DNA of 64,000 bases from Thermoanaerobaculia bacterium (GTDB lineage: Bacteria > Acidobacteriota > Thermoanaerobaculia > Multivoradales > Multivoraceae): positions 608,001-672,000 of the forward strand of contig OY761158.1 in the NCBI GenBank assembly GCA_963664405.1, written 5' to 3'. Below the pieces are notes generated by a model, which worked only from the letters and a program-made list of their open reading frames with translations, ran no database searches and was not told where the DNA came from. The translations under genes and the position numbers were made by a program. Positions 7,271 to 42,746 of the stretch are shown here, piece by piece; positions within the stretch are counted from its first letter, which is position 1, and each line of letters begins with the position of its first letter.

Positions 7271-8131
7271 ATGGGTGCACTGAGAGATCGGATGGAGACG
7301 GACATGAAGCTGCACGACTTTCGACCGGCGACCCAATCGCAGTACTTGCACTGCGTGCGCCGGCTGGCGAAGCACTACGGGCGCTCGCCCGATAAGCTGT
7401 GCGAAGAGGAGGTGCGCAGTTTCCTGCTCTACCTCCGCGAGGACCGTGCTTTGAGCTCGGCGAGTATCAGCACCTACACGGCGGCGCTGAAGTTCTTCTA
7501 CGGGATCACCCTTCACCGCGAGGAGATGGTGCCCTCGTTAGGCGCGCCGAAGGTGCGCACGCAGCTTCCGGTCATCCTCTCGGGCACCGAGGTCGCGGCG
7601 GTGCTTGGCGCGATCCGCTCGCACGAGCTGCGTACGTTGGCCACGGTTCTGTACGCTTCGGGCCTGCGCATCAGCGAAGCGTGCGCGCTGGAGGTGTCAG
7701 ACATCGACTCCGAGCGCATGCTGATCCATGTGCGCGACGGTAAGGGCGGCCGCGACCGCTTCGCCCTTCTCAGCCCGCAGCTGCTCAAGGTGCTGCGTCG
7801 ATACTTCCGCAAAGAGCGCCCCGAGCCGCCCTATCTGTTTCCCGCTCCGCGCTCCGGCAAGACGTTGCGCCCCGACACGGTGCGTAAGAGCCTGCATCGG
7901 GCGGCTTTGCGCTGCGGGATTGTCAAGCGTGTGACCCCACACCTGCTGCGTCACTGCTTTGGCGCCCACATGCTGGAACTGGGCACTGATATCCGTGTGC
8001 TGCAGGCGCTGTTGGGTCACCGCTCGATCCGCACGACCCAGCTGTACGTACAGGTCTCCACCCAGCTGATCGCGCGCACCCCAAGCCCGTTGGACCTGCT
8101 CGGCACTCCCGCGGGCAAGGTCCTCGGATAA
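7271..8131 (+). CDS. Tyrosine recombinase/integrase
   Basis: YASGLRISE (R), GKGGRDR (K), HLLRH (HxxR), LLGH, TTQLY (Y). GAGGAGG RBS upstream. Confidence 0.95.
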   Translation: MGALRDRMETDMKLHDFRPATQSQYLHCVRRLAKHYGRSPDKLCEEEVRSFLLYLREDRALSSASISTYTAALKFFYGITLHREEMVPSLGAPKVRTQLPVILSGTEVAAVLGAIRSHELRTLATVLYASGLRISEACALEVSDIDSERMLIHVRDGKGGRDRFALLSPQLLKVLRRYFRKERPEPPYLFPAPRSGKTLRPDTVRKSLHRAALRCGIVKRVTPHLLRHCFGAHMLELGTDIRVLQALLGHRSIRTTQLYVQVSTQLIARTPSPLDLLGTPAGKVLG

Positions 8132-8149: not shown

Positions 8150-9376
8150 GTGCACCCCCAGCAGGGGTGCGCTCGGCAGCTCGACCGCAAAGCGGGTCGG
8201 TCTCGCTATGACCTGGGCGAGATCTTCCGGGCGCACATCGACGCCTTCCGTGACCGCCACTTCTTGAGTCCTTTACAGGCTCAGGTGGTGCGGGCGATCT
8301 GTGCCTGCCGCACCGCGCAGCTGGGCGGGCATCTGGACGTGTGTCGGGACTGCGGCTATAGGCGCCCTGCGTATAACTCATGCCGGAATCGTCACTGCCC
8401 CAAGTGCCAGGCGCTGGATCAGCACCGTTGGCTCGAGCGGCGCCTGTCTCGCATTCTCCCGGTCGGCTACTTTCACGTCGTCTTCACCCTGCCGGGGGAG
8501 CTCGCCTCAGTGGGTCTGCGCAACCGCCGCCTTGTCTACGAGCTGCTCTTCCGAGCCGCGGCGGAAACGCTTCTGACCCTCGGCAAGGATCCCCAACGGC
8601 TCGGAGCCCTGCTCGGCATCACGATGGTGCTGCACACCTGGACTCGGGACCTGCGTTTCCACCCCCATATCCACGCCATCGTCACCGGCGGAGGACTCAG
8701 CCTCGACGGACGGCGGTGGCTCTCGACGGGCGAGAAGTATCTGTTTGCCGTCAAGCTTCTGGGGAGGCTGTACCGCGGTAAGTTTCTCGGCCACCTGGCC
8801 CGTGCCTACAAAGACGGACAGCTCGACCTGCCACGAGATCTGGCCGAGGACGGTGGCTTCGATCGCCTGCTGTCGAAGCTCTACGCCAAGGACTTCATCG
8901 TCTACGCCAAGCGTCCCTTCGCCGGTGCGCAGCAGGTCTTCTCCTACCTGGGCCGCTATACCCATCGAGTCGCACTGTCCAACCACAGAATCCTCAACGT
9001 CACGGAGCAGGCCATCACCCTCGCCACGCGCGATGGCAAGACCGTGACGCTCTCTCCCGAGGAGCTCATCCGCCGCTTTGTGCTGCACGTCCTGCCCCGA
9101 CGATTCCAAAAGATTCGCCACTATGGACTCATGGCCTCGGCCAACGTCCACTCTCGCCTCGAGCGAGCCCGCGCTCTGCTCGAGTCCACCGCCACAGCGA
9201 CCCAGGCCGAAACCTCCCACCCCATCCCCATCGAGTCGGAAACCACAAACGAGCTCCTCCAACGCCTCACCGGCATCGACCTCGCGATCTGTCCCGCCTG
9301 CCAAGGTCCCCGCCTCCAACGTTTCCCCCTCGACACTCCTGCCTACGCCCGGCCTCCACCGGTGGCGGCCGCGTGA
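8150..9376 (+). CDS. IS91-family (Y2 HUH) transposase with N-terminal zinc-binding domain
   Basis: CRDCG...YNSCRNRHCPKC, HVVFTLP, HTW...HPHIH (HUH), YLGRYTHR (YxxxY), IRHYG, C-terminal CPAC. Confidence 0.93.
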   Translation: MHPQQGCARQLDRKAGRSRYDLGEIFRAHIDAFRDRHFLSPLQAQVVRAICACRTAQLGGHLDVCRDCGYRRPAYNSCRNRHCPKCQALDQHRWLERRLSRILPVGYFHVVFTLPGELASVGLRNRRLVYELLFRAAAETLLTLGKDPQRLGALLGITMVLHTWTRDLRFHPHIHAIVTGGGLSLDGRRWLSTGEKYLFAVKLLGRLYRGKFLGHLARAYKDGQLDLPRDLAEDGGFDRLLSKLYAKDFIVYAKRPFAGAQQVFSYLGRYTHRVALSNHRILNVTEQAITLATRDGKTVTLSPEELIRRFVLHVLPRRFQKIRHYGLMASANVHSRLERARALLESTATATQAETSHPIPIESETTNELLQRLTGIDLAICPACQGPRLQRFPLDTPAYARPPPVAAA

Positions 9377-15263: not shown

Positions 15264-15632
15264 ATGGGTGAGTTCATTCGCCTGGAGCCGATTTGGCTTC
15301 AGGCCTGGATTCTGTTCATGGTGGTGGTGAACTCGATGTCGCTCCTTTTCGTACGGCAGCTCGAAGCTCGCTGGATACTCATAGCCTGGGTCGCCAATGT
15401 CCTACTCATGAACTGGCTCTTCGCACGCTTCGGATACGTAAGGCTTCTCGGCGCCAGTCACGCTCTGTTTTGGTCCCCACTTCTCCTCTACCTCTACCTG
15501 AGACGAGCGAAAATCGCCGAGGCGGGCCGGATCTTCCGCGCCTGGGTGGCCGTGCTCGTGGTCACCGACGCCACGTCTTTGGTCATAGACTACGTCGACA
15601 TTGCTCGCTACTTTCTAGGAGATCGGAGCTGA
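15264..15632 (+). CDS. Small integral membrane protein (hypothetical)
   Basis: About four hydrophobic segments; tightly packed between co-oriented genes. Confidence 0.75.
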   Translation: MGEFIRLEPIWLQAWILFMVVVNSMSLLFVRQLEARWILIAWVANVLLMNWLFARFGYVRLLGASHALFWSPLLLYLYLRRAKIAEAGRIFRAWVAVLVVTDATSLVIDYVDIARYFLGDRS

Positions 15633-21048: not shown

Positions 21049-23130
21049 TCAAGCCTTTACTTCGGCGGCCTTACGGGCCACCAATTCTTCTTGCACAGAA
21101 TCCGGGGCGGGGGCGTAGCGGGAAAACTCCATGGTGAACTCGGCCTTGCCCTGGGTCGACGAGCGTAGCGAGGTGGCGTAGCCGAACATCTCGGCCAGCG
21201 GTACCTCGGCATCGGTGGCCGCCATGACCCCGTCCTCCTCCGAGCCTATGATCGAGGCGCGGCGCTGCATCAAAGTGGTCAGAACAGCACCGCTGAACTC
21301 ACTCGGGCTCTCGACCGAGACGCGCATGATCGGCTCGAGTACCCGCGGCTTACCGCGATCGTAAGCCTCTCTCCAGGCGCCGCGAGCCGCCTCTTTGAAA
21401 GCGATCTCCGAAGAGTCGACTGCGTGGTTGTTGCCATCGTTGATGACCACTCGTACGTTGACGACCGGAGCGCCGATCTTGCGACCCTCGGCTATCATCG
21501 AGCGAAATCCCTTCTGCACCGCCGGGATGAACTTGGTGGGAATGACTCCACCCCTGATCTCGTCAACGAACTCGAATTCGGCATCCGGATTCGGTTCGAT
21601 GTACCCGGTGACGCGACCGTACTGGCCTGAGCCACCGGTCTGCTTCTTGTGGATGTAGTCGAAGTCGACGCGCCGGGTCACCGTCTCGCGGTAGGCGACG
21701 CGAGGGGGAGAGACTTCGACTTCGACGCTGTACTCCCGTCGCATGCGCTCGAGATAGACCTCGAGCTGTAGCTCGCCCATGCCGTGAATAACGGTCTCTC
21801 CCGAATCGGGATCGGCACCGGCCCGGAAGGTTGGATCCTCCTTGGTGAAGCGACGCAGGGCCTTGGTGAGGTTGGCCTGCGACTTGTTGCCCACCGGATG
21901 CACCGACAAGGAGATGACCGGCTCCGGAACGTAAATCGAAGTCAAGGCCACCTGCAGGCCGCCGCTGGTAAAGGTGTCGCCGGAGTGGCAGTCGAGACCA
22001 AATATGGCAACGATGTCGCCAGGTCCCGCCTCCAACACATCCTCCATCTCGTCTGCGTGCATCCGCACCAGACGACCGATCTTGGTCTGTTTGCCCGTAC
22101 GCGTGTTAGTGATCAACGTCTCGCGGTTGGCCGTGCCCTGGTAGAGACGGATGTAGGTGAGTTGCCCATAACGCCCGTCTTCGAGCTTGAAGGCGAGGAG
22201 AACGACATCATCGTCAGGGTCGCTGGACAAGATCATCTTGTCCTCATCAGCGCTATCGAGGCGGATGCCCTCGTTCACAATCTCGGTGGGGTTCGGGAGA
22301 TAGCGACATACTGCATCGAGTAGGGGCTGCACGCCCTTGTTCTTGTAGGCCGAACCAATCAACATCGGCGTCAGCTGAAGCGAGATCGTCGCTTCTCGAA
22401 TCGCCTCCCAGATGACCTCTTCGCTGAGCGTGTCTTCGAGAATGGCTTCCATGAGCTCGACCGAGAACATCGAAACCGCATCGAGCATCTCTTCGCGAGC
22501 AGCTTCGGCGGCCGCTTTATGCTCGCCGGGAATCTCCCGATCCACCGGCTCTTCGCCAAATTCGCCCTCGAAATAGATCGCCTTCATCGAGATGAGATCG
22601 ATGACCCCCTCGAAGTCGTGACCCAGGCCGATCGGCAACTGCAAGAGCACCGGATTCTGCCCGAGCTTCTCTCGTAGCTGATCCCTCACCCGATGAGGAT
22701 CGGCCCCCTCCCGATCGCACTTGTTGACGAAGGCAATACGGGGCACCTTGTAGCGGTTCATCTGCCGGTCGACGGTGAAGGACTGACTCTGTACTCCGGC
22801 CACCGCGCAGAGCACCAGCACCGCCCCATCGAGCACCCGCAAACTACGCTCGACTTCGATGGTGAAGTCGACGTGGCCAGGGGTATCGATGATGTTGATG
22901 TGATTGCCGTCCCATTCGCAGTGAGTGGCGGCGGAGGCGATGGTGATGCCTCGCTCGCGCTCCAGCTCCATCGAGTCCATCTTGGCGCCGACCCCGTCCT
23001 TGCCACGAACGTCGTGGATGGCGTGAACCCGATCGGTGTAGAAAAGAACTCGCTCCGTCAGGGTAGTCTTGCCGCTGTCGATGTGTGCGGAGATCCCGAT
23101 ATTGCGTAGAGTGCTGAGGTCTTGGGTCAT
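21049..23130 (-). CDS. fusA: Elongation factor G (stand-alone copy)
   Basis: [49 protein letters not shown]. Confidence 0.97.
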
Positions 23131-30904: not shown

Positions 30905-33057
<2,153 letters not shown>

Positions 33058-33191
33058 ATCCCCTCCGAGAAGACTATTGGTTGCAGGTACTGCGCGGCTT
33101 CCGGGACGAGCCGGCTGTAGCAGAGCACTTGATACCATGCCTTCAGCCGCTGGGCGAATTCGAGCCATCTACCGCAATCCCGGGAGAGAAC

Positions 33192-33836
33192 ATGAGCGAG
33201 CCAAAGGCACCCGAAGCCGCACTTCGGGTTGCCCATCTGATCGTCTACTCCGACTACCTCTGACCCTGGTGCCTGGTCGCAGCGGTCCGGCTGCGAGAGT
33301 TGAAAGAGGAGCTCGGAGAGAGCCTCCGGGTGACTTGGAAGAGCTTTCTTCTCCGCCCAAGGCCCGCCACGCATCCGCGCACGCTGGAGAAATTCAAGCG
33401 CTACACCGAGTCCTGGCGAGCTCCGGCGGCCGAAGAACCTGCGGCCGGGTTCAAGATCTGGTTTACCGAGGAAGGTCCTCCCTCCCACAGCCTGCCGCCC
33501 CACCAGGTCGCCAAGGCGGCGGCGCGCATCGGACAGGAGGCCTTCACTTCGATCCACGATCTTCTTCTCGACGCCTACTTTCGCCGCAGCCGAGATATCA
33601 GTAGCGAAGCGACTCTGCGCGAGCTCTGGCAGGAAGCGAATCTTCCGGCGGATAGCTTCTCCGATTGGCAGGACCCGGAGATCCTGCGCTCCATCGAGGA
33701 AGAGTTTCGGGAAGCCCTCGAGAACGGGGCGGGCGGAGCGCCGGCGGTGCGAATGGACGGCAACTACAGCGTCGTCATGGGCGCCCAGCCCACCGAAGTC
33801 TATCGACGCTGGATCAAGCGCATCCTACGGAAGTGA
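33192..33836 (+). CDS. DsbA/FrnE-like thioredoxin-fold oxidoreductase, probable selenoprotein (UPWC)
   Basis: ATG 33192 with GGGAGAG RBS; VYSDYL-TGA-PWC in frame with the downstream 178-aa ORF; C-terminal GAPAV and GAQP motifs; hairpin immediately 3' of the TGA. Confidence 0.88.
33277..33296 (+). promoter_or_regulatory. Putative bacterial SECIS element
   Basis: Stem tcgcagc/gctgcga with loop GGUCCG. The loop begins 20 nt after the UGA and starts with G, consistent with the bacterial SECIS model. Confidence 0.7.
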
Positions 33837-34132
33837 TCAATATCACTTCCTCCGGATGCGAACATGGCGCCGAGGACGGCGCATTCTACGGAAGTGATCA
33901 ATATCACTTCCTCCGGATGCGAACATGGCGCCGAGGACGGCGCATCCTACGGAAGTGATCAATATCACTTCCTCCGGATGCGAACATGGCGCCGAGGACG
34001 GCGCATTCTACGGAAGTGATCAATATCACTTCCTCCGGATGCGGAACATGGCGCCGAGGACGGCGCATCCTACCGAAGTGATCAGTATCACTCCCTCCGG
34101 ATGCGGAACATGGCGCCGAGGACGGCGCATTC
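33819..34132. repeat. Tandem array, 5 x 61-62-bp REP-like units plus a partial unit
   Basis: Units start at 33819, 33880, 33941, 34002, 34064 and (partial) 34126. The minus strand reads GTAG-RA-TGCGCCGTCCTCGGCGC. Confidence 0.93.
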
Positions 34133-34139
34133 GGATCTC

Positions 34140-35069
34140 CTAACCGGCGGAGCGGGCAGCCTCGAGAGCGGGCTTGGCGTCACGTAGGGCCTGGACGTGC
34201 TCGGGGCCGGTGCCGCAGCAGCCGCCGAGCAGGCGAACCCCTGACGCCACCCATGTCAAAGCTTCGGCAACCAGATCCTGCGGCGAGACAACGTCGACGA
34301 AGCTCCAGTTGGGCTTCGTGAAGTAGCCCGACTCCGGGTAGACACCGATCGGGGCCCTCCAACGCTCGCGGACCAACTTCAGGGCGTCGTCGACCGACTC
34401 GATCTCACAGTGCATGAGATTGACCACCGTCGGCGCCATCGGAATCAAGGTGTCGAGCACGACGGCGAAGTCGAGCTGGGGATGATCGAAAGCGACGAGG
34501 CCTCCGTGCTCGGGATGGCGTCTGCAGCTCAGGCCCAGCCAGACCGGAAGGCCGGTCTCCAAGGCAGCCCTCATCGCCAACGGGGCGTGTACCGGCTCTT
34601 CCATCATCTCCAAGGCGATCAGATCGACTCCGGCATCCGCAAGAATCCCCGCCAGCTCCCGATAGACCTCGAGCTCGTCCTCGGGGTTGGGGAAGGCGCT
34701 GCGATCAAAGTGTGCCGGCATTGCCGAGATCGACCCAGCGATCGCGACCGACTTCTTGGCCGTGCTCTCGCGTGCCTCGATCGCCACTTCGACCGCGCGT
34801 TGATTGATCGCCCTCACCTCGTCGCCCAGTCCGGCGCCTTCGAGCATCTGTCGGGTCGTACCGAAAGTGTTGGTGACAATCACCTCGGCGCCGGCGCGTA
34901 TGTAGTCCTCATGGACCTCTCGTACCACCCTGGCGTGAGTGTGCATTCCCGCTCCGCTCCAAGTCGCCTCGTCCATCGGTACGCCTCGGCGCTGAAGCTC
35001 GGTCCCCGTACCTCCGTCGAGAAGAACGATGTGGTCGGCTTCGAGACGTTTCAACCAATCCCTGGACAT
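34140..35069 (-). CDS. Homocysteine S-methyltransferase family protein
   Basis: LLDGGTGTEL, HEDYIRAGAEVIVTNTF, GVYP, GGCCGTGPEH. Start at ATG 35069. Confidence 0.92.
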   Translation of the reverse strand: MSRDWLKRLEADHIVLLDGGTGTELQRRGVPMDEATWSGAGMHTHARVVREVHEDYIRAGAEVIVTNTFGTTRQMLEGAGLGDEVRAINQRAVEVAIEARESTAKKSVAIAGSISAMPAHFDRSAFPNPEDELEVYRELAGILADAGVDLIALEMMEEPVHAPLAMRAALETGLPVWLGLSCRRHPEHGGLVAFDHPQLDFAVVLDTLIPMAPTVVNLMHCEIESVDDALKLVRERWRAPIGVYPESGYFTKPNWSFVDVVSPQDLVAEALTWVASGVRLLGGCCGTGPEHVQALRDAKPALEAARSAG

Positions 35070-35129
35070 GAGCGGTTCACCTGTCGAGTCGGCGCCTAGC
35101 ACCGTATCAAGGGTATAGTTTCGCCGCTC

Positions 35130-36041
35130 ATGACCGGAATCGAGCTCGAAGATCGCCAGATCGGATGCGCACGGATTCTCTTTGGTGAGAACAACGGTAA
35201 GTACCCTGACGCGAATTGCGTGCTGGTCGAGGGAGCCACGGAACGCGTGCTTCTGGACACCACGCCAGGACTCGTTCAACGTGGCCACGAAGCCGTAGAT
35301 CCCATCGACCGCATTCTTCTCACTCACTGCCACGAAGACCATCTGGCCGGGAATTTCCTCTTTCCGGAAGCTCAGGTCCATCTTCACGAGGCCGACCATC
35401 CCGGCATCGTCTCGCTCGAAGCGATGCTCGATATCTATGGGATGGAAGGGCCCCGCCGAAGCCGCTTCGCCAAGGTCTTGACCGAGACATTTCACTTCGT
35501 CCCCTGCCCCGAAGCCAAGTGCTTTCGGGAAGGAGACGTCTTCGATCTCGGCGGCGGTGTCACCATCGAGGTGGTGCACACGCCCGGTCACACTCCTGGC
35601 CATTGCGCGCTCTGGATTCGGCCGGCGGACATCCTCTTCCTTGGCGATATCGATCTATCCAGCTTCGGCCCCTTCTATGGAGACGTGTGGTCGAGTCTGG
35701 AAGACTTCACGGTCAGCCTCGACAAAGTCGCTGCTCTCGAGGCGCGCTATTACCTGAGCTCTCATCACGTCGGCCTGCTCGATGGTCGAGACTCGTTTCT
35801 CGAGCGGCTCGGCCGCTACAAGGCCAAACTTCTGGATCGCGAAAGTCGGATGGTCGAGTTCCTCGCCGAGCCCAGAAGCCTGGACGAGATCGCCGCTCAT
35901 CGCTTCGTCTACCGACCCGGGGACAAGATCGACAATGCCGAGCTAGTCGAGAGGACGATGATGGGCCAGCACATCGAGAAGCTGCACCGCATCGGCAAAG
36001 TCGAAGAAGTCGAGCCCGGGCGTTACCGCAGCGTAAACTGA
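35130..36041 (+). CDS. MBL-fold metallo-hydrolase
   Basis: THCHEDH, TPGHTPGH, GD, SH. Confidence 0.9.
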   Translation: MTGIELEDRQIGCARILFGENNGKYPDANCVLVEGATERVLLDTTPGLVQRGHEAVDPIDRILLTHCHEDHLAGNFLFPEAQVHLHEADHPGIVSLEAMLDIYGMEGPRRSRFAKVLTETFHFVPCPEAKCFREGDVFDLGGGVTIEVVHTPGHTPGHCALWIRPADILFLGDIDLSSFGPFYGDVWSSLEDFTVSLDKVAALEARYYLSSHHVGLLDGRDSFLERLGRYKAKLLDRESRMVEFLAEPRSLDEIAAHRFVYRPGDKIDNAELVERTMMGQHIEKLHRIGKVEEVEPGRYRSVN

Positions 36042-40346: not shown

Positions 40347-42746
40347 TCAACGAGGTTCCAAACGAATGCGCAGAGCAGCCGCCTGCTCGACTCGGAAGCG
40401 GGAATAGAGCAGCGGAAAGGCCTCGTCCCGAGCCCACATCGGGAAGAGATCACGGTAATGCGGACTCTCGGGACGGCCGGACTGGCCAGGACTGTTCATT
40501 GCCACGGACTCGTCCCACGCGCCCACGTCGACGACCATGCGGAAGCTGGCACCGCCGGTCTGGCGAAAATCGGTCCCACGATACCGGGTCGCGCCAACCG
40601 TCTCACCGCTTCCGCCGCGGGGAAGAGGACCCACATCGGCCTCGGCGCCGAGCTCGGCCCGCAACAGTGAGGACAGCGGATGCTCCAGTCGACTGTGATG
40701 GAGGCTCCCCCACTGCCAGCGGCTGCGGTCGGCTCCAAGCAGATCTTCCGTTTCGGCTAGGGCCGCCTCGAGGGAGTCGAGAAGCACCTCGTCGCGAGCA
40801 TCGGCGCCAAGGAGATCGAGATCGAGGGCGCGCAGAAGCGATCGGGGACCCACTTGGGCGAGGGCCTCGACCAGTTCGCCTCCCCAGCCCCTCTCTTCGG
40901 CGAGGCGACCCCACAGCACAGATGGAAGATGGCGACGCAGCCACACCTCGAAGAGAGCAGCGGCGGCACTGTCTGCCTCCAGACGGTGGTCCCAGTTCTG
41001 AAGAAGGGCAAGAGCCTCCCGCTGAGCTCCGCTGCCGGCCTCGAGACCGGACAGTCGCCGGATGAGCTCGAACGCCGGGAGCGAGAGGAAGTCGCCCTGC
41101 AACTCGAGGGAATCTTCGACCGAGACGAGTCGCGCCTCTTCCAATGTGTCGGCGATGCGCGAGTAGCGGTAGGGCGCAGCCCACTCGAACCCGAGCTGAT
41201 GGGAGTAGGCGGGCGGCAGGTTCATCTGATTGGCGCTGCCGACCCAGCCGCGTTCGGGGTTGGACTCGACCGGTAGCTGATCCATGTCGTAGTAGCCGGA
41301 CCACTCGTAACTGCCGTCGCCTGGAACGGGGAGGAGCCCGTCCCAGTTCGGTCGTACCGGAGCAAGGCCACCCGGTTTCCAACCGATATTGCCATCCACA
41401 TCCGCATACACCTGGTTCTCTCCCGGTAGGCCCCACCTGTTCATCGCCGCCAGGAACTGATCCCAGTTGTCCGCTCGCATATATTGGATGCTTCCGAGGT
41501 AAGGCGCCATCCCCGGCTCCAGCCAGGCCGCTCGCAGGGCATAGGCCAGGTGACGCTCTTCGTCCTCCCACAAGACGGGGCCGTGCCGAGTGAAGCGCAA
41601 AGCCACCTCTTCGCTACCGCCGTCCTTCACTTCGATCTGTTCCCGCACTTCGGTCATCCGCTCCCAACGTCCGTCGTACCAGTAGTCGGTGGCGTGCTCG
41701 GGTCGCGTGCGGTACACGTACAAGTCTTCTTGATCGATGCTGAAGACCGTGAGACCGAAGGCGATGCGCTCATTGTGTCCGATCGACACTCCGGGGAGCG
41801 CAGGCTCACCGGCGCCGATGACGTTGATCCCGGGAGCCTGGAGGTGGACGATGTAACGCAGTGAGGGCACCGCGAGCGAGCGATGGGGGTCGTTGGCGAG
41901 AATCGGCCGCCCCGTAGTCGTGCGCCCAGGTCCAATCGCCCAGTTGTTGCTCCCCCGGGCGAATGAGCCCCACGCCTCAGAGGCCGCGACCGAGGCCTGC
42001 TCCTCCTCACCGAGGACGAAGCCGACAGCTCCAGTAGCAAGGGTGTAGCGCGCGAGGACCTCCGCCGTCACGCTGTCGAGATCGAGTCCCTCAGGCACCT
42101 CGAGCTCGTGCTCCGGCTCGTAGACGTCACGAAGAGCGAGGGCCTCGCGACCGTAGCGATTGAGGAACTGCGCTCGACCAACTTCGCTGTTGACGTTGCG
42201 CAGCAGGCCGTGGCTGCGGATCTTGACCACCGTCTCGGGGGTCCAGTGAGCTGGCCGGTAGCCGAGGACCTCGAACTCGGGAGCAAGAAGCTCGGGGCGC
42301 GAAGAAGTCAGGTCGACATAGGCGTTCACGCCTGTAACGAAGGAGCTGACGATGCGTTTGGTGTCGTCCGCATACGCCAGCCATTCGGCGTGCATATCCC
42401 CGCGGTACAGGAATAGACGGGCAGCCCGGTCTTTCTCCAAATACTCAGCCCCGAGGACCTCCGCCAGTGTGCCGTCGCCGCGACGCTTCCACAGGTCGAG
42501 CTGCCAGAGGCGATCTCGAGCGGCGTTCCAACCCTGCGCTAGGAAAAGGTCGTCCTGCGAGGTTGCATAGATATGGGCAACACCCCAGCGATCGACGAGA
42601 ATCTCGACCGACGAACTGAGCCCGGCAACAGAGTAGCTCTCCTCGTCGACCGACCTCGTCGGTACCGACGCCGAACAGGACAGCAAAGCCAGTGCCAAGA
42701 CCGCGGCGACCAGAGTCGCGACGAATGGCCGATCAGGGCAATACAT
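40347..42746 (-). CDS. Penicillin acylase family (Ntn hydrolase) lipoprotein
   Basis: DRWGVAHIYA, DRLWQ, GSNNW, ANDPH, PGQSG. Confidence 0.94.
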   Translation of the reverse strand: MYCPDRPFVATLVAAVLALALLSCSASVPTRSVDEESYSVAGLSSSVEILVDRWGVAHIYATSQDDLFLAQGWNAARDRLWQLDLWKRRGDGTLAEVLGAEYLEKDRAARLFLYRGDMHAEWLAYADDTKRIVSSFVTGVNAYVDLTSSRPELLAPEFEVLGYRPAHWTPETVVKIRSHGLLRNVNSEVGRAQFLNRYGREALALRDVYEPEHELEVPEGLDLDSVTAEVLARYTLATGAVGFVLGEEEQASVAASEAWGSFARGSNNWAIGPGRTTTGRPILANDPHRSLAVPSLRYIVHLQAPGINVIGAGEPALPGVSIGHNERIAFGLTVFSIDQEDLYVYRTRPEHATDYWYDGRWERMTEVREQIEVKDGGSEEVALRFTRHGPVLWEDEERHLAYALRAAWLEPGMAPYLGSIQYMRADNWDQFLAAMNRWGLPGENQVYADVDGNIGWKPGGLAPVRPNWDGLLPVPGDGSYEWSGYYDMDQLPVESNPERGWVGSANQMNLPPAYSHQLGFEWAAPYRYSRIADTLEEARLVSVEDSLELQGDFLSLPAFELIRRLSGLEAGSGAQREALALLQNWDHRLEADSAAAALFEVWLRRHLPSVLWGRLAEERGWGGELVEALAQVGPRSLLRALDLDLLGADARDEVLLDSLEAALAETEDLLGADRSRWQWGSLHHSRLEHPLSSLLRAELGAEADVGPLPRGGSGETVGATRYRGTDFRQTGGASFRMVVDVGAWDESVAMNSPGQSGRPESPHYRDLFPMWARDEAFPLLYSRFRVEQAAALRIRLEPR

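Follow-up and report, generated by a model that had tools for sequence, protein, structure and literature searches.

Gene organisation at the locus

The window, by which we mean the whole stretch of 64,000 nucleotides that was analysed, carries at 33192-33836 one intact gene that ordinary gene callers cut in two. The open reading frame (ORF) listing gives the two parts as 33081..33263 (60 aa) and 33300..33836 (178 aa), both on the plus strand and, as both start coordinates are divisible by 3, in one frame. A preliminary description of the locus, made from the letters alone, had reported this split in a single frame, and we recovered both ORFs at exactly these positions. The first part ends in the TGA at 33261-33263, which is followed directly by CCC TGG TGC, and the open frame on its 3' side runs for 191 codons up to a second TGA at 33834-33836. 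From direct reading of the sequence, the likely start of the frame is the ATG at 33192. Reading through the first TGA gives the peptide ...LIVYSDYL-U-PWC..., so that the TGA stands at the first cysteine position of the family motif, as had been proposed (SDYL-U-PWC versus SDYLCPWC in the cysteine homologues). The features of the gene, in which U denotes selenocysteine (Sec), are as follows.

33182..33188, plus strand: Shine-Dalgarno-like GGGAGAG, 3 nt 5' of the ATG at 33192 (direct sequence reading)
33192..33836, plus strand: candidate DsbA/FrnE-like selenoprotein gene, 214 residues with Sec as residue 24 (translation with TGA read as U)
33261..33263, plus strand: in-frame TGA (U24), predicted attacking residue of U-P-W-C (sequence and homologue column)
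33270..33272, plus strand: TGC, the predicted resolving cysteine C27 of UxxC (sequence and homologue codons)
33277..33296, plus strand: SECIS-type hairpin inside the coding sequence (fold, bSECIS constraints and conservation in the Sec set)
33834..33836, plus strand: stop TGA of the DsbA-like gene, which has no SECIS-type context; homologues terminate there too

Protein family and predicted fold

The read-through product matches the Pfam family DSBA (PF01323) with an E-value of 5.2e-18 and 65.9 bits (cut-off 25.6), and the match covers residues 16-205 and thus spans the TGA. In the NCBIfam search of the protein no model scored above its cut-off, the best named one being the Rcas_1661 (seleno)lipoprotein family with 26.1 bits against a cut-off of 190. 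The best sequence match in the PDB was SCO1869 of Streptomyces coelicolor (E 1.9e-6), and FrnE of Deinococcus radiodurans was found with an E-value of 1.1e-5.

An AlphaFold2 model built from a 25-row alignment has a mean pLDDT of 93.5 and a pTM of 0.89. In the model, residue 24 lies between the strand 14-20 and the helix 25-44, which is where thioredoxin folds have their attacking cysteine. When the model was compared to the PDB with Foldseek, the top matches were proteins with a cytoplasmic-type DsbA fold, namely 3kzq, FrnE (5cp1 and 5xwh), 2in3, YjbH (6ghb), SCO1869 (3gl5) and DsbM (5hfg), with TM-scores of about 0.73-0.78. The preliminary description had called the product a DsbA/FrnE-like oxidoreductase, and the Pfam, PDB and Foldseek matches agree with that assignment.

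Only 13 polar or charged residues (MSEPKAPEAALRV), without a hydrophobic stretch, precede the strand 14-20, which leaves no room for a signal peptide. From its sequence and model, the window protein is predicted to be cytoplasmic, without signal peptide or membrane anchor. C27 is its sole cysteine, and the protein therefore lacks the C-terminal CxxxxC of drFrnE; in the model the chain ends 13 residues after the start of the last helix. The CP(W/F)C-type motif of FrnE is present as U-P-W-C, with Sec predicted to replace the first Cys.

The protein-database search returned 1642 matches at E <= 0.001, and motifs were counted in the best 120 of them. D-x-x-C-x-x-C is found at the N-terminus, in the same place as the window motif, in 114 of these 120 homologues. 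The other 6 of the best 120 begin 3' of the motif, at positions that are not homologous to one another, which bears out the earlier statement that standard annotation misses the active site. One of these 6, a relative of 168 aa that is 98% identical, begins at the residue matching M47 of the window protein. From their sequences, such short entries appear to be the signature of gene callers cutting the TGA-containing copies.

The Sec/Cys column in relatives

A single scan of species-representative genomes gave 80 loci whose proteins are 46-62% identical to the query; the genome that the window comes from is not among them. The preliminary description had called for an alignment of homologues with regard to Cys/TGA pairing at this column, and the pairing was found: the codon at the U24 column is TGA in 29 of the 80 loci and a cysteine codon in 51 (TGC in 36, TGT in 15), with no other codon present. 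The C27 codon is TGC or TGT in 79 loci, and L067 also has Cys there. The octapeptide LIVYSDYL on the 5' side of the TGA is conserved in all 80. Each of the 29 TGA loci has 187-203 open codons 3' of the TGA, and in most of them a start codon stands 13 codons 5' of it. By record title, these 29 loci belong to Myxococcota or 'delta proteobacteria' (13), Binatia (7), Acidobacteriota (4), Gammaproteobacteria (4) and Spirochaetales (1).

In a quick maximum-likelihood tree of 81 proteins (LG+G4, SH-aLRT only, all rows coded identically at the Sec column), 11 changes of the Sec/Cys label are needed, and at least 4 of them are forced by starred, that is, well-supported branches. Shuffled labels gave 24.5 changes on average, and none of 500 shuffles was as low as 11. 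The window protein falls in a group of six that are all Sec forms (support 93, not starred), together with L001, L004, L025 and L017, which are Acidobacteriota, and L006.

It is possible, if rather doubtful at present, that these proteins, about 200 residues long and recognisable by SDYL[U/C]PWC, FLLRPRP and GPPSHS, form a FrnE-like clade of their own, within which Sec and Cys were exchanged many times. Such a clade may extend over Acidobacteriota, Binatia, Myxococcota and some Gammaproteobacteria, and its SECIS may be written into the codons of helix alpha-1 (A-A-V-R-L-R). Sec forms may make up about a third of its genes at the DNA level (29/80) and may be present in protein databases only as truncated entries. 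If the clade is real, it would offer a suitable natural setting in which to study the advantage of Sec over Cys in a DsbA fold.

The hairpin downstream of the TGA

The 7-bp stem with a GGUCCG loop that had been noted 3' of the TGA is present at 33277-33296. Its arms are TCGCAGC (33277-33283) and GCTGCGA (33290-33296), and the loop GGTCCG occupies 33284-33289. The stem begins 13 nt after the TGA, the spacing from UGA to loop is 20 nt, and the hairpin alone folds with -12.3 kcal/mol. In the part of PMC13188914 that was available to us, the bSECIS model is given as a loop of 3-9 nt, a stem of 4-16 bp, a G in the first two loop positions, a spacing of 16-37 nt and an MFE <= -7.5. The window hairpin, with its 7 bp, its 6-nt loop starting with GG, its spacing and its energy, lies within all of these bounds. 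The 66-nt stretch 33255-33320 has a fold z-score of -0.97, a fold that 34 of 200 shuffles equal or surpass. As the fold of the single sequence is unremarkable for a genome with 63% G+C, the case for the hairpin rests on the comparison with relatives. Rfam gave no match in the whole window at the gathering score; in E-value mode, six chance-level matches (E 0.15-8.8), none of them SECIS-related, were found in 33150-34200, and no family was assigned to the hairpin at E <= 10.

For this comparison we used gap-free alignments of 60 nt around the codon, namely a Sec set of 30 rows including the window and a Cys set of 51 rows. In the stem columns 23-29/36-42, 79.8% of the cells pair in the Sec set (n=30; none of 500 shuffles as high, slid registers 21-52%) whereas 43.4% pair in the Cys set (n=51; 257 of 500 shuffles as high), and the mean MFE of the fixed 20-nt segment is -8.97 kcal/mol in the Sec set versus -4.32 kcal/mol in the Cys set (Mann-Whitney p = 8e-11), where both the shuffle counts and the p value overstate independence because the sequences are related. 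The same segment folds at or below -7.5 in 24 of the 30 Sec rows and in 4 of the 51 Cys rows. The loop G-U (columns 31-32) is present and always unpaired in 30/30 Sec rows, compared to 36/51 Cys rows with the two bases. At the outermost pair, 23-42, 16 distinct Sec rows have A-U and 7 have U-A. Judging from the codons, the swap is compensatory, one partner changing through an Asn or Val codon and the other through a synonymous Arg codon. Taken over the two alignments, the comparison indicates that the TGA genes have conserved a SECIS-type hairpin, which the Cys genes have not.

Not all measures separate the two sets. With the bSECIS constraints applied to contiguous stems only, 8 of the 30 Sec rows and 5 of the 51 Cys rows pass; the remaining Sec rows need a bulged U, which is a common variant, or a mismatch. 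The MFE of the 52 nt 3' of the codon does not distinguish the sets, with -16.0 for Sec versus -17.8 for Cys (p 0.065) and thus a difference in the wrong direction. Two Sec loci of Pseudomonadales type, L036 (L036:10043-10102) and L065 (L065:10037-10096), have weak hairpins of -5.4 and -4.2, their relative L024 having -8.2; the two may use a different SECIS or may have undergone decay. The Cys locus L040 (L040:10019-10078) has TGC at the column yet a perfect 8-bp hairpin of -13.6 kcal/mol, as if it had recently been converted from Sec to Cys.

The 20-nt hairpin of the window is base-for-base identical in two Myxococcota loci, L019 and L058, the proteins of which are only 53% and 52% identical to that of the window.

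Neighbourhood of the gene

Within 5 kb, no neighbour family is common to the window and the loci of the relatives. The commonest neighbour in the relatives is a gene with a flavin-reductase domain (PF01613), which immediately precedes the DsbA-like gene in the same orientation in 22 of 81 loci, of which 3 are Sec forms (e.g. L003:3274-3810, plus strand); it is absent from the window and could be a lineage-specific operon partner. A penicillin-amidase-family gene is found in the window at 40347-42746 (minus strand), about 6.5 kb downstream of the DsbA-like gene, and the same Pfam family occurs within 5 kb in 14 loci (e.g. L016:14151-15626); this proximity may be a remnant of synteny.

Other features of the window are listed below.

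156-1145: rve-type integrase (Pfam)
7271-8131: phage-integrase-family recombinase (Pfam)
8150-9376: IS91-type Y2 transposase, directly after the recombinase (Pfam)
33818-34130: tandem array with a 61-bp unit, 5.1 copies, 96% matches

The mobile-element genes cluster near the left end of the window. The 61-bp array sits between two convergent genes, the DsbA-like one and, on the minus strand at 34140-35603, one for a homocysteine S-methyltransferase. The first unit of the array takes in the last 19 nt of the DsbA-like gene, the stop TGA at 33834-33836 falling in the stem of that unit, and one unit folds with -24.9 kcal/mol (z -4.18). The 22-nt palindrome of the unit occurs 5 times in the window, always in the array (0 expected), and in 0/80 loci. 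No Rfam family was found for the array, either at the gathering score over the whole window or in E-value mode over 33150-34200, and it is unlike CRISPR, as all units are alike and there are no variable spacers.

On the other side of the DsbA-like gene lies a fadB-like gene (30905-33168, minus strand) with an enoyl-CoA hydratase domain followed by 3-hydroxyacyl-CoA dehydrogenase domains. It is split into two overlapping ORFs by an imperfect near-tandem duplication of about 74 nt at about 32400-32526. The duplicated peptide, which starts VSG(D), is encoded twice, the second copy in the frame that runs into the dehydrogenase part. The split may be either a real pseudogene or an assembly artefact.

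UGA usage and alternative readings

We consider it very probable that 33192-33836 is one gene for a cytoplasmic, FrnE-like thiol-disulfide oxidoreductase of the DsbA family with Sec as the first residue of its redox motif (U-P-W-C). That the UGA is read as Sec in a UxxC DsbA-like protein had been proposed at the outset; the TGA/Cys pairing at the column, along with a hairpin conserved in the Sec set only, speaks for this reading, and Sec insertion is predicted from the sequences. Three other readings were weighed.

The first of these, which we regard as very unlikely, is that the UGA is read by a route other than Sec, either through genome-wide reassignment (codes 4 or 25) or by a near-cognate tRNA (Cys or Trp) after loss of the Sec machinery. 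It draws on the search of the 64-kb window for that machinery, where ARAGORN reported 0 genes of any kind, Rfam gave 0 matches at the gathering score and Pfam, applied to 47 ORFs, gave no SelA, SelB or SelD; the sole translation GTPase among these ORFs is EF-G (21049-23130, minus strand). Around the 29 Sec loci, ARAGORN likewise reported no tRNA-Sec; the only tRNA genes in these flanks are for tRNA-Leu(gag) (5 loci) and tRNA-Thr (1 locus). However, TGA ends 25 of the 46 window ORFs that were sent to Pfam, and it ends the DsbA-like gene as well, which excludes genome-wide reassignment. Moreover, without SelB there would be no reason for a SECIS-type hairpin to be retained, with its loop G-U invariant and one of its pairs compensatory.

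The tRNA-Leu(gag) genes all lie downstream of the DsbA-like gene on the opposite strand, in L048 and L059 within about 50 nt of its end. As called by ARAGORN, their positions are as follows.

L048:10644-10730, opposite strand: tRNA-Leu(gag)
L059:10646-10732, opposite strand: tRNA-Leu(gag)
L028:4118-4204, opposite strand: tRNA-Leu(gag)
L037:12070-12157, opposite strand: tRNA-Leu(gag)
L018:16453-16539, opposite strand: tRNA-Leu(gag)

We also scanned the window for other UGA-interrupted genes, using the third-position GC upstream and downstream of every TGA. The scan gave 9 places, none with a redox motif, and is a weak negative, since the filter missed the DsbA-like gene itself through its short upstream part. 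The TGAs at 15630, 26765 and 36039 (plus strand) were considered as recoded codons and rejected: each joins two same-frame ORFs, 189-419 codons long, that look like neighbouring genes.

An extremely unlikely reading is that the locus makes two products, a 23-residue peptide stopped at the UGA and a truncated protein that starts at TTG 33300 and lacks the redox motif. This matches both the gene-caller output and the truncated database entries, but the latter start at differing, non-homologous positions. A protein starting at 33300 would also lack strand beta-1, the redox motif and the first 12 of 20 residues in helix alpha-1, all of them parts of what is modelled with confidence as a single domain, and LIVYSDYL, on the 5' side of the TGA, is conserved in every locus.

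Close to refuted, finally, is a nonsense pseudogene or base-call error, with TGC or TGT having become TGA and the gene being dead or mis-sequenced: the frameshifting duplication in the adjoining fadB-like gene is the reason for keeping a small probability of decay or assembly error in this region, and the window holds no visible Sec machinery, but the identical TGA stands at the column in 29 of 80 loci of other species and neither another stop nor an odd codon is seen there, 191 further codons are open past it, TGA genes retain the hairpin whereas Cys genes do not, and the 98%-identical relative is also called only from its M47-matching residue, as would be expected with a shared TGA.

Proposed mechanism

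With the UGA read as Sec, decoding would follow the known bacterial route. During translation, SelB carrying Sec-tRNA(Sec) would bind the hairpin at 33277-33296, which, 13 nt after the UGA, would present G-G-U at the start of its loop to SelB. SelB would then deliver Sec to the UGA at 33261-33263 in place of termination. In the folded protein, as suggested by the fold and by published proteins of the FrnE/DsbA type, the selenolate at the N-terminal end of helix alpha-1 may attack disulfides of substrates or other oxidised thiols; C27 would resolve the mixed intermediate, giving an internal selenenylsulfide, and a cellular reductant would regenerate the enzyme. Under oxidative or metal stress, the enzyme would probably reduce or isomerise disulfides. 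Such a role in the cytoplasm seems likeliest because the protein has no predicted signal peptide and because FrnE, DsbM and YjbH are among the nearest folds.

For annotators, this means a whole DsbA-like gene whose predicted catalytic residue is selenocysteine, versus the automatic fragments of 60 aa and 178 aa. The source organism is a likely selenium user. The paired Sec and Cys orthologues, with a hairpin found conserved in the Sec genes only, may serve as a clean comparative set for the rules of the bacterial SECIS and for Sec/Cys exchange.

Comparison with known systems

The literature statements in this section refer to the parts of the cited papers that were available to us. Lists of selenoprotein families have included the "DsbA-like protein, UxxC" since 2005, when it was reported under COG2761 as a new family from the Sargasso Sea metagenome with 9 sequences (PMC1088965). 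A DsbA-like selenoprotein was later listed in bacterial genomes including Anaeromyxobacter dehalogenans (PMC1794560), and by 2016 the count was 41 organisms and 45 sequences (PMC5029168). A review of 2026 lists a 'DsbA-like protein form 1' (PF01323, UxxC) and also a 'form 2' with the motif DxxUP (PMC13188914). The remark in the preliminary description that UxxC DsbA-like selenoproteins are already known is thus in line with these four sources. The window gene shares with this family a DSBA-like thioredoxin domain, a predicted Sec as the first residue of UxxC, a SECIS hairpin directly downstream and widespread Cys homologues. With every sequence feature of the family present, it is best regarded as a further member of an established family, and since the principle was already established, the gene confirms and adds to what is known without altering it. 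By COG or Pfam label and motif, on which this comparison is based, the D-Y-L-U-P of the window also fits the DxxUP of form 2, and the two published forms may both touch the FrnE-like clade tentatively set out above.

Among proteins of known structure, FrnE of D. radiodurans (DR_0659; PDB 5cnw, 5cp1, 5xwh) shares the cytoplasmic DsbA fold and has an active site of CP(W/F)C type. The putative placement with FrnE is based on the sequence match (E 1.1e-5) together with a Foldseek probability of 1.00 and TM-scores of 0.76-0.77, values that SCO1869 and 3kzq equal or exceed. The two proteins differ in that identity over the structural alignment is about 19-20%, that Sec would take the place of the first Cys in the window protein, and that the latter is without the C-terminal CxxxxC tail. 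In the FrnE subfamily (cd03024) the active site is CP(W/F)C, and the C-terminal CxxxxC is present in many but not all members; the tail helps to regenerate drFrnE, and some FrnE homologues are without it (PMC8945050).

DsbM of Pseudomonas aeruginosa (5hfg), YjbH of the Bacillus subtilis type (6ghb) and SCO1869 of S. coelicolor (3gl5) have the same fold and size, with Foldseek E-values of 1e-8 to 1e-10. All three are Cys proteins with 18-22% identity to the window protein, and the functions known among them (GSH-dependent reductase, Spx adaptor) cannot be transferred to it.

Periplasmic DsbA of the E. coli type has the motif CPHC. It resembles the window protein in its thioredoxin fold, into which a helical domain is inserted, and in its motif of CxxC type; the window protein differs in having UPWC and no predicted signal peptide, and in the Foldseek comparison the classical DsbA structures rank well below the matches of FrnE type.
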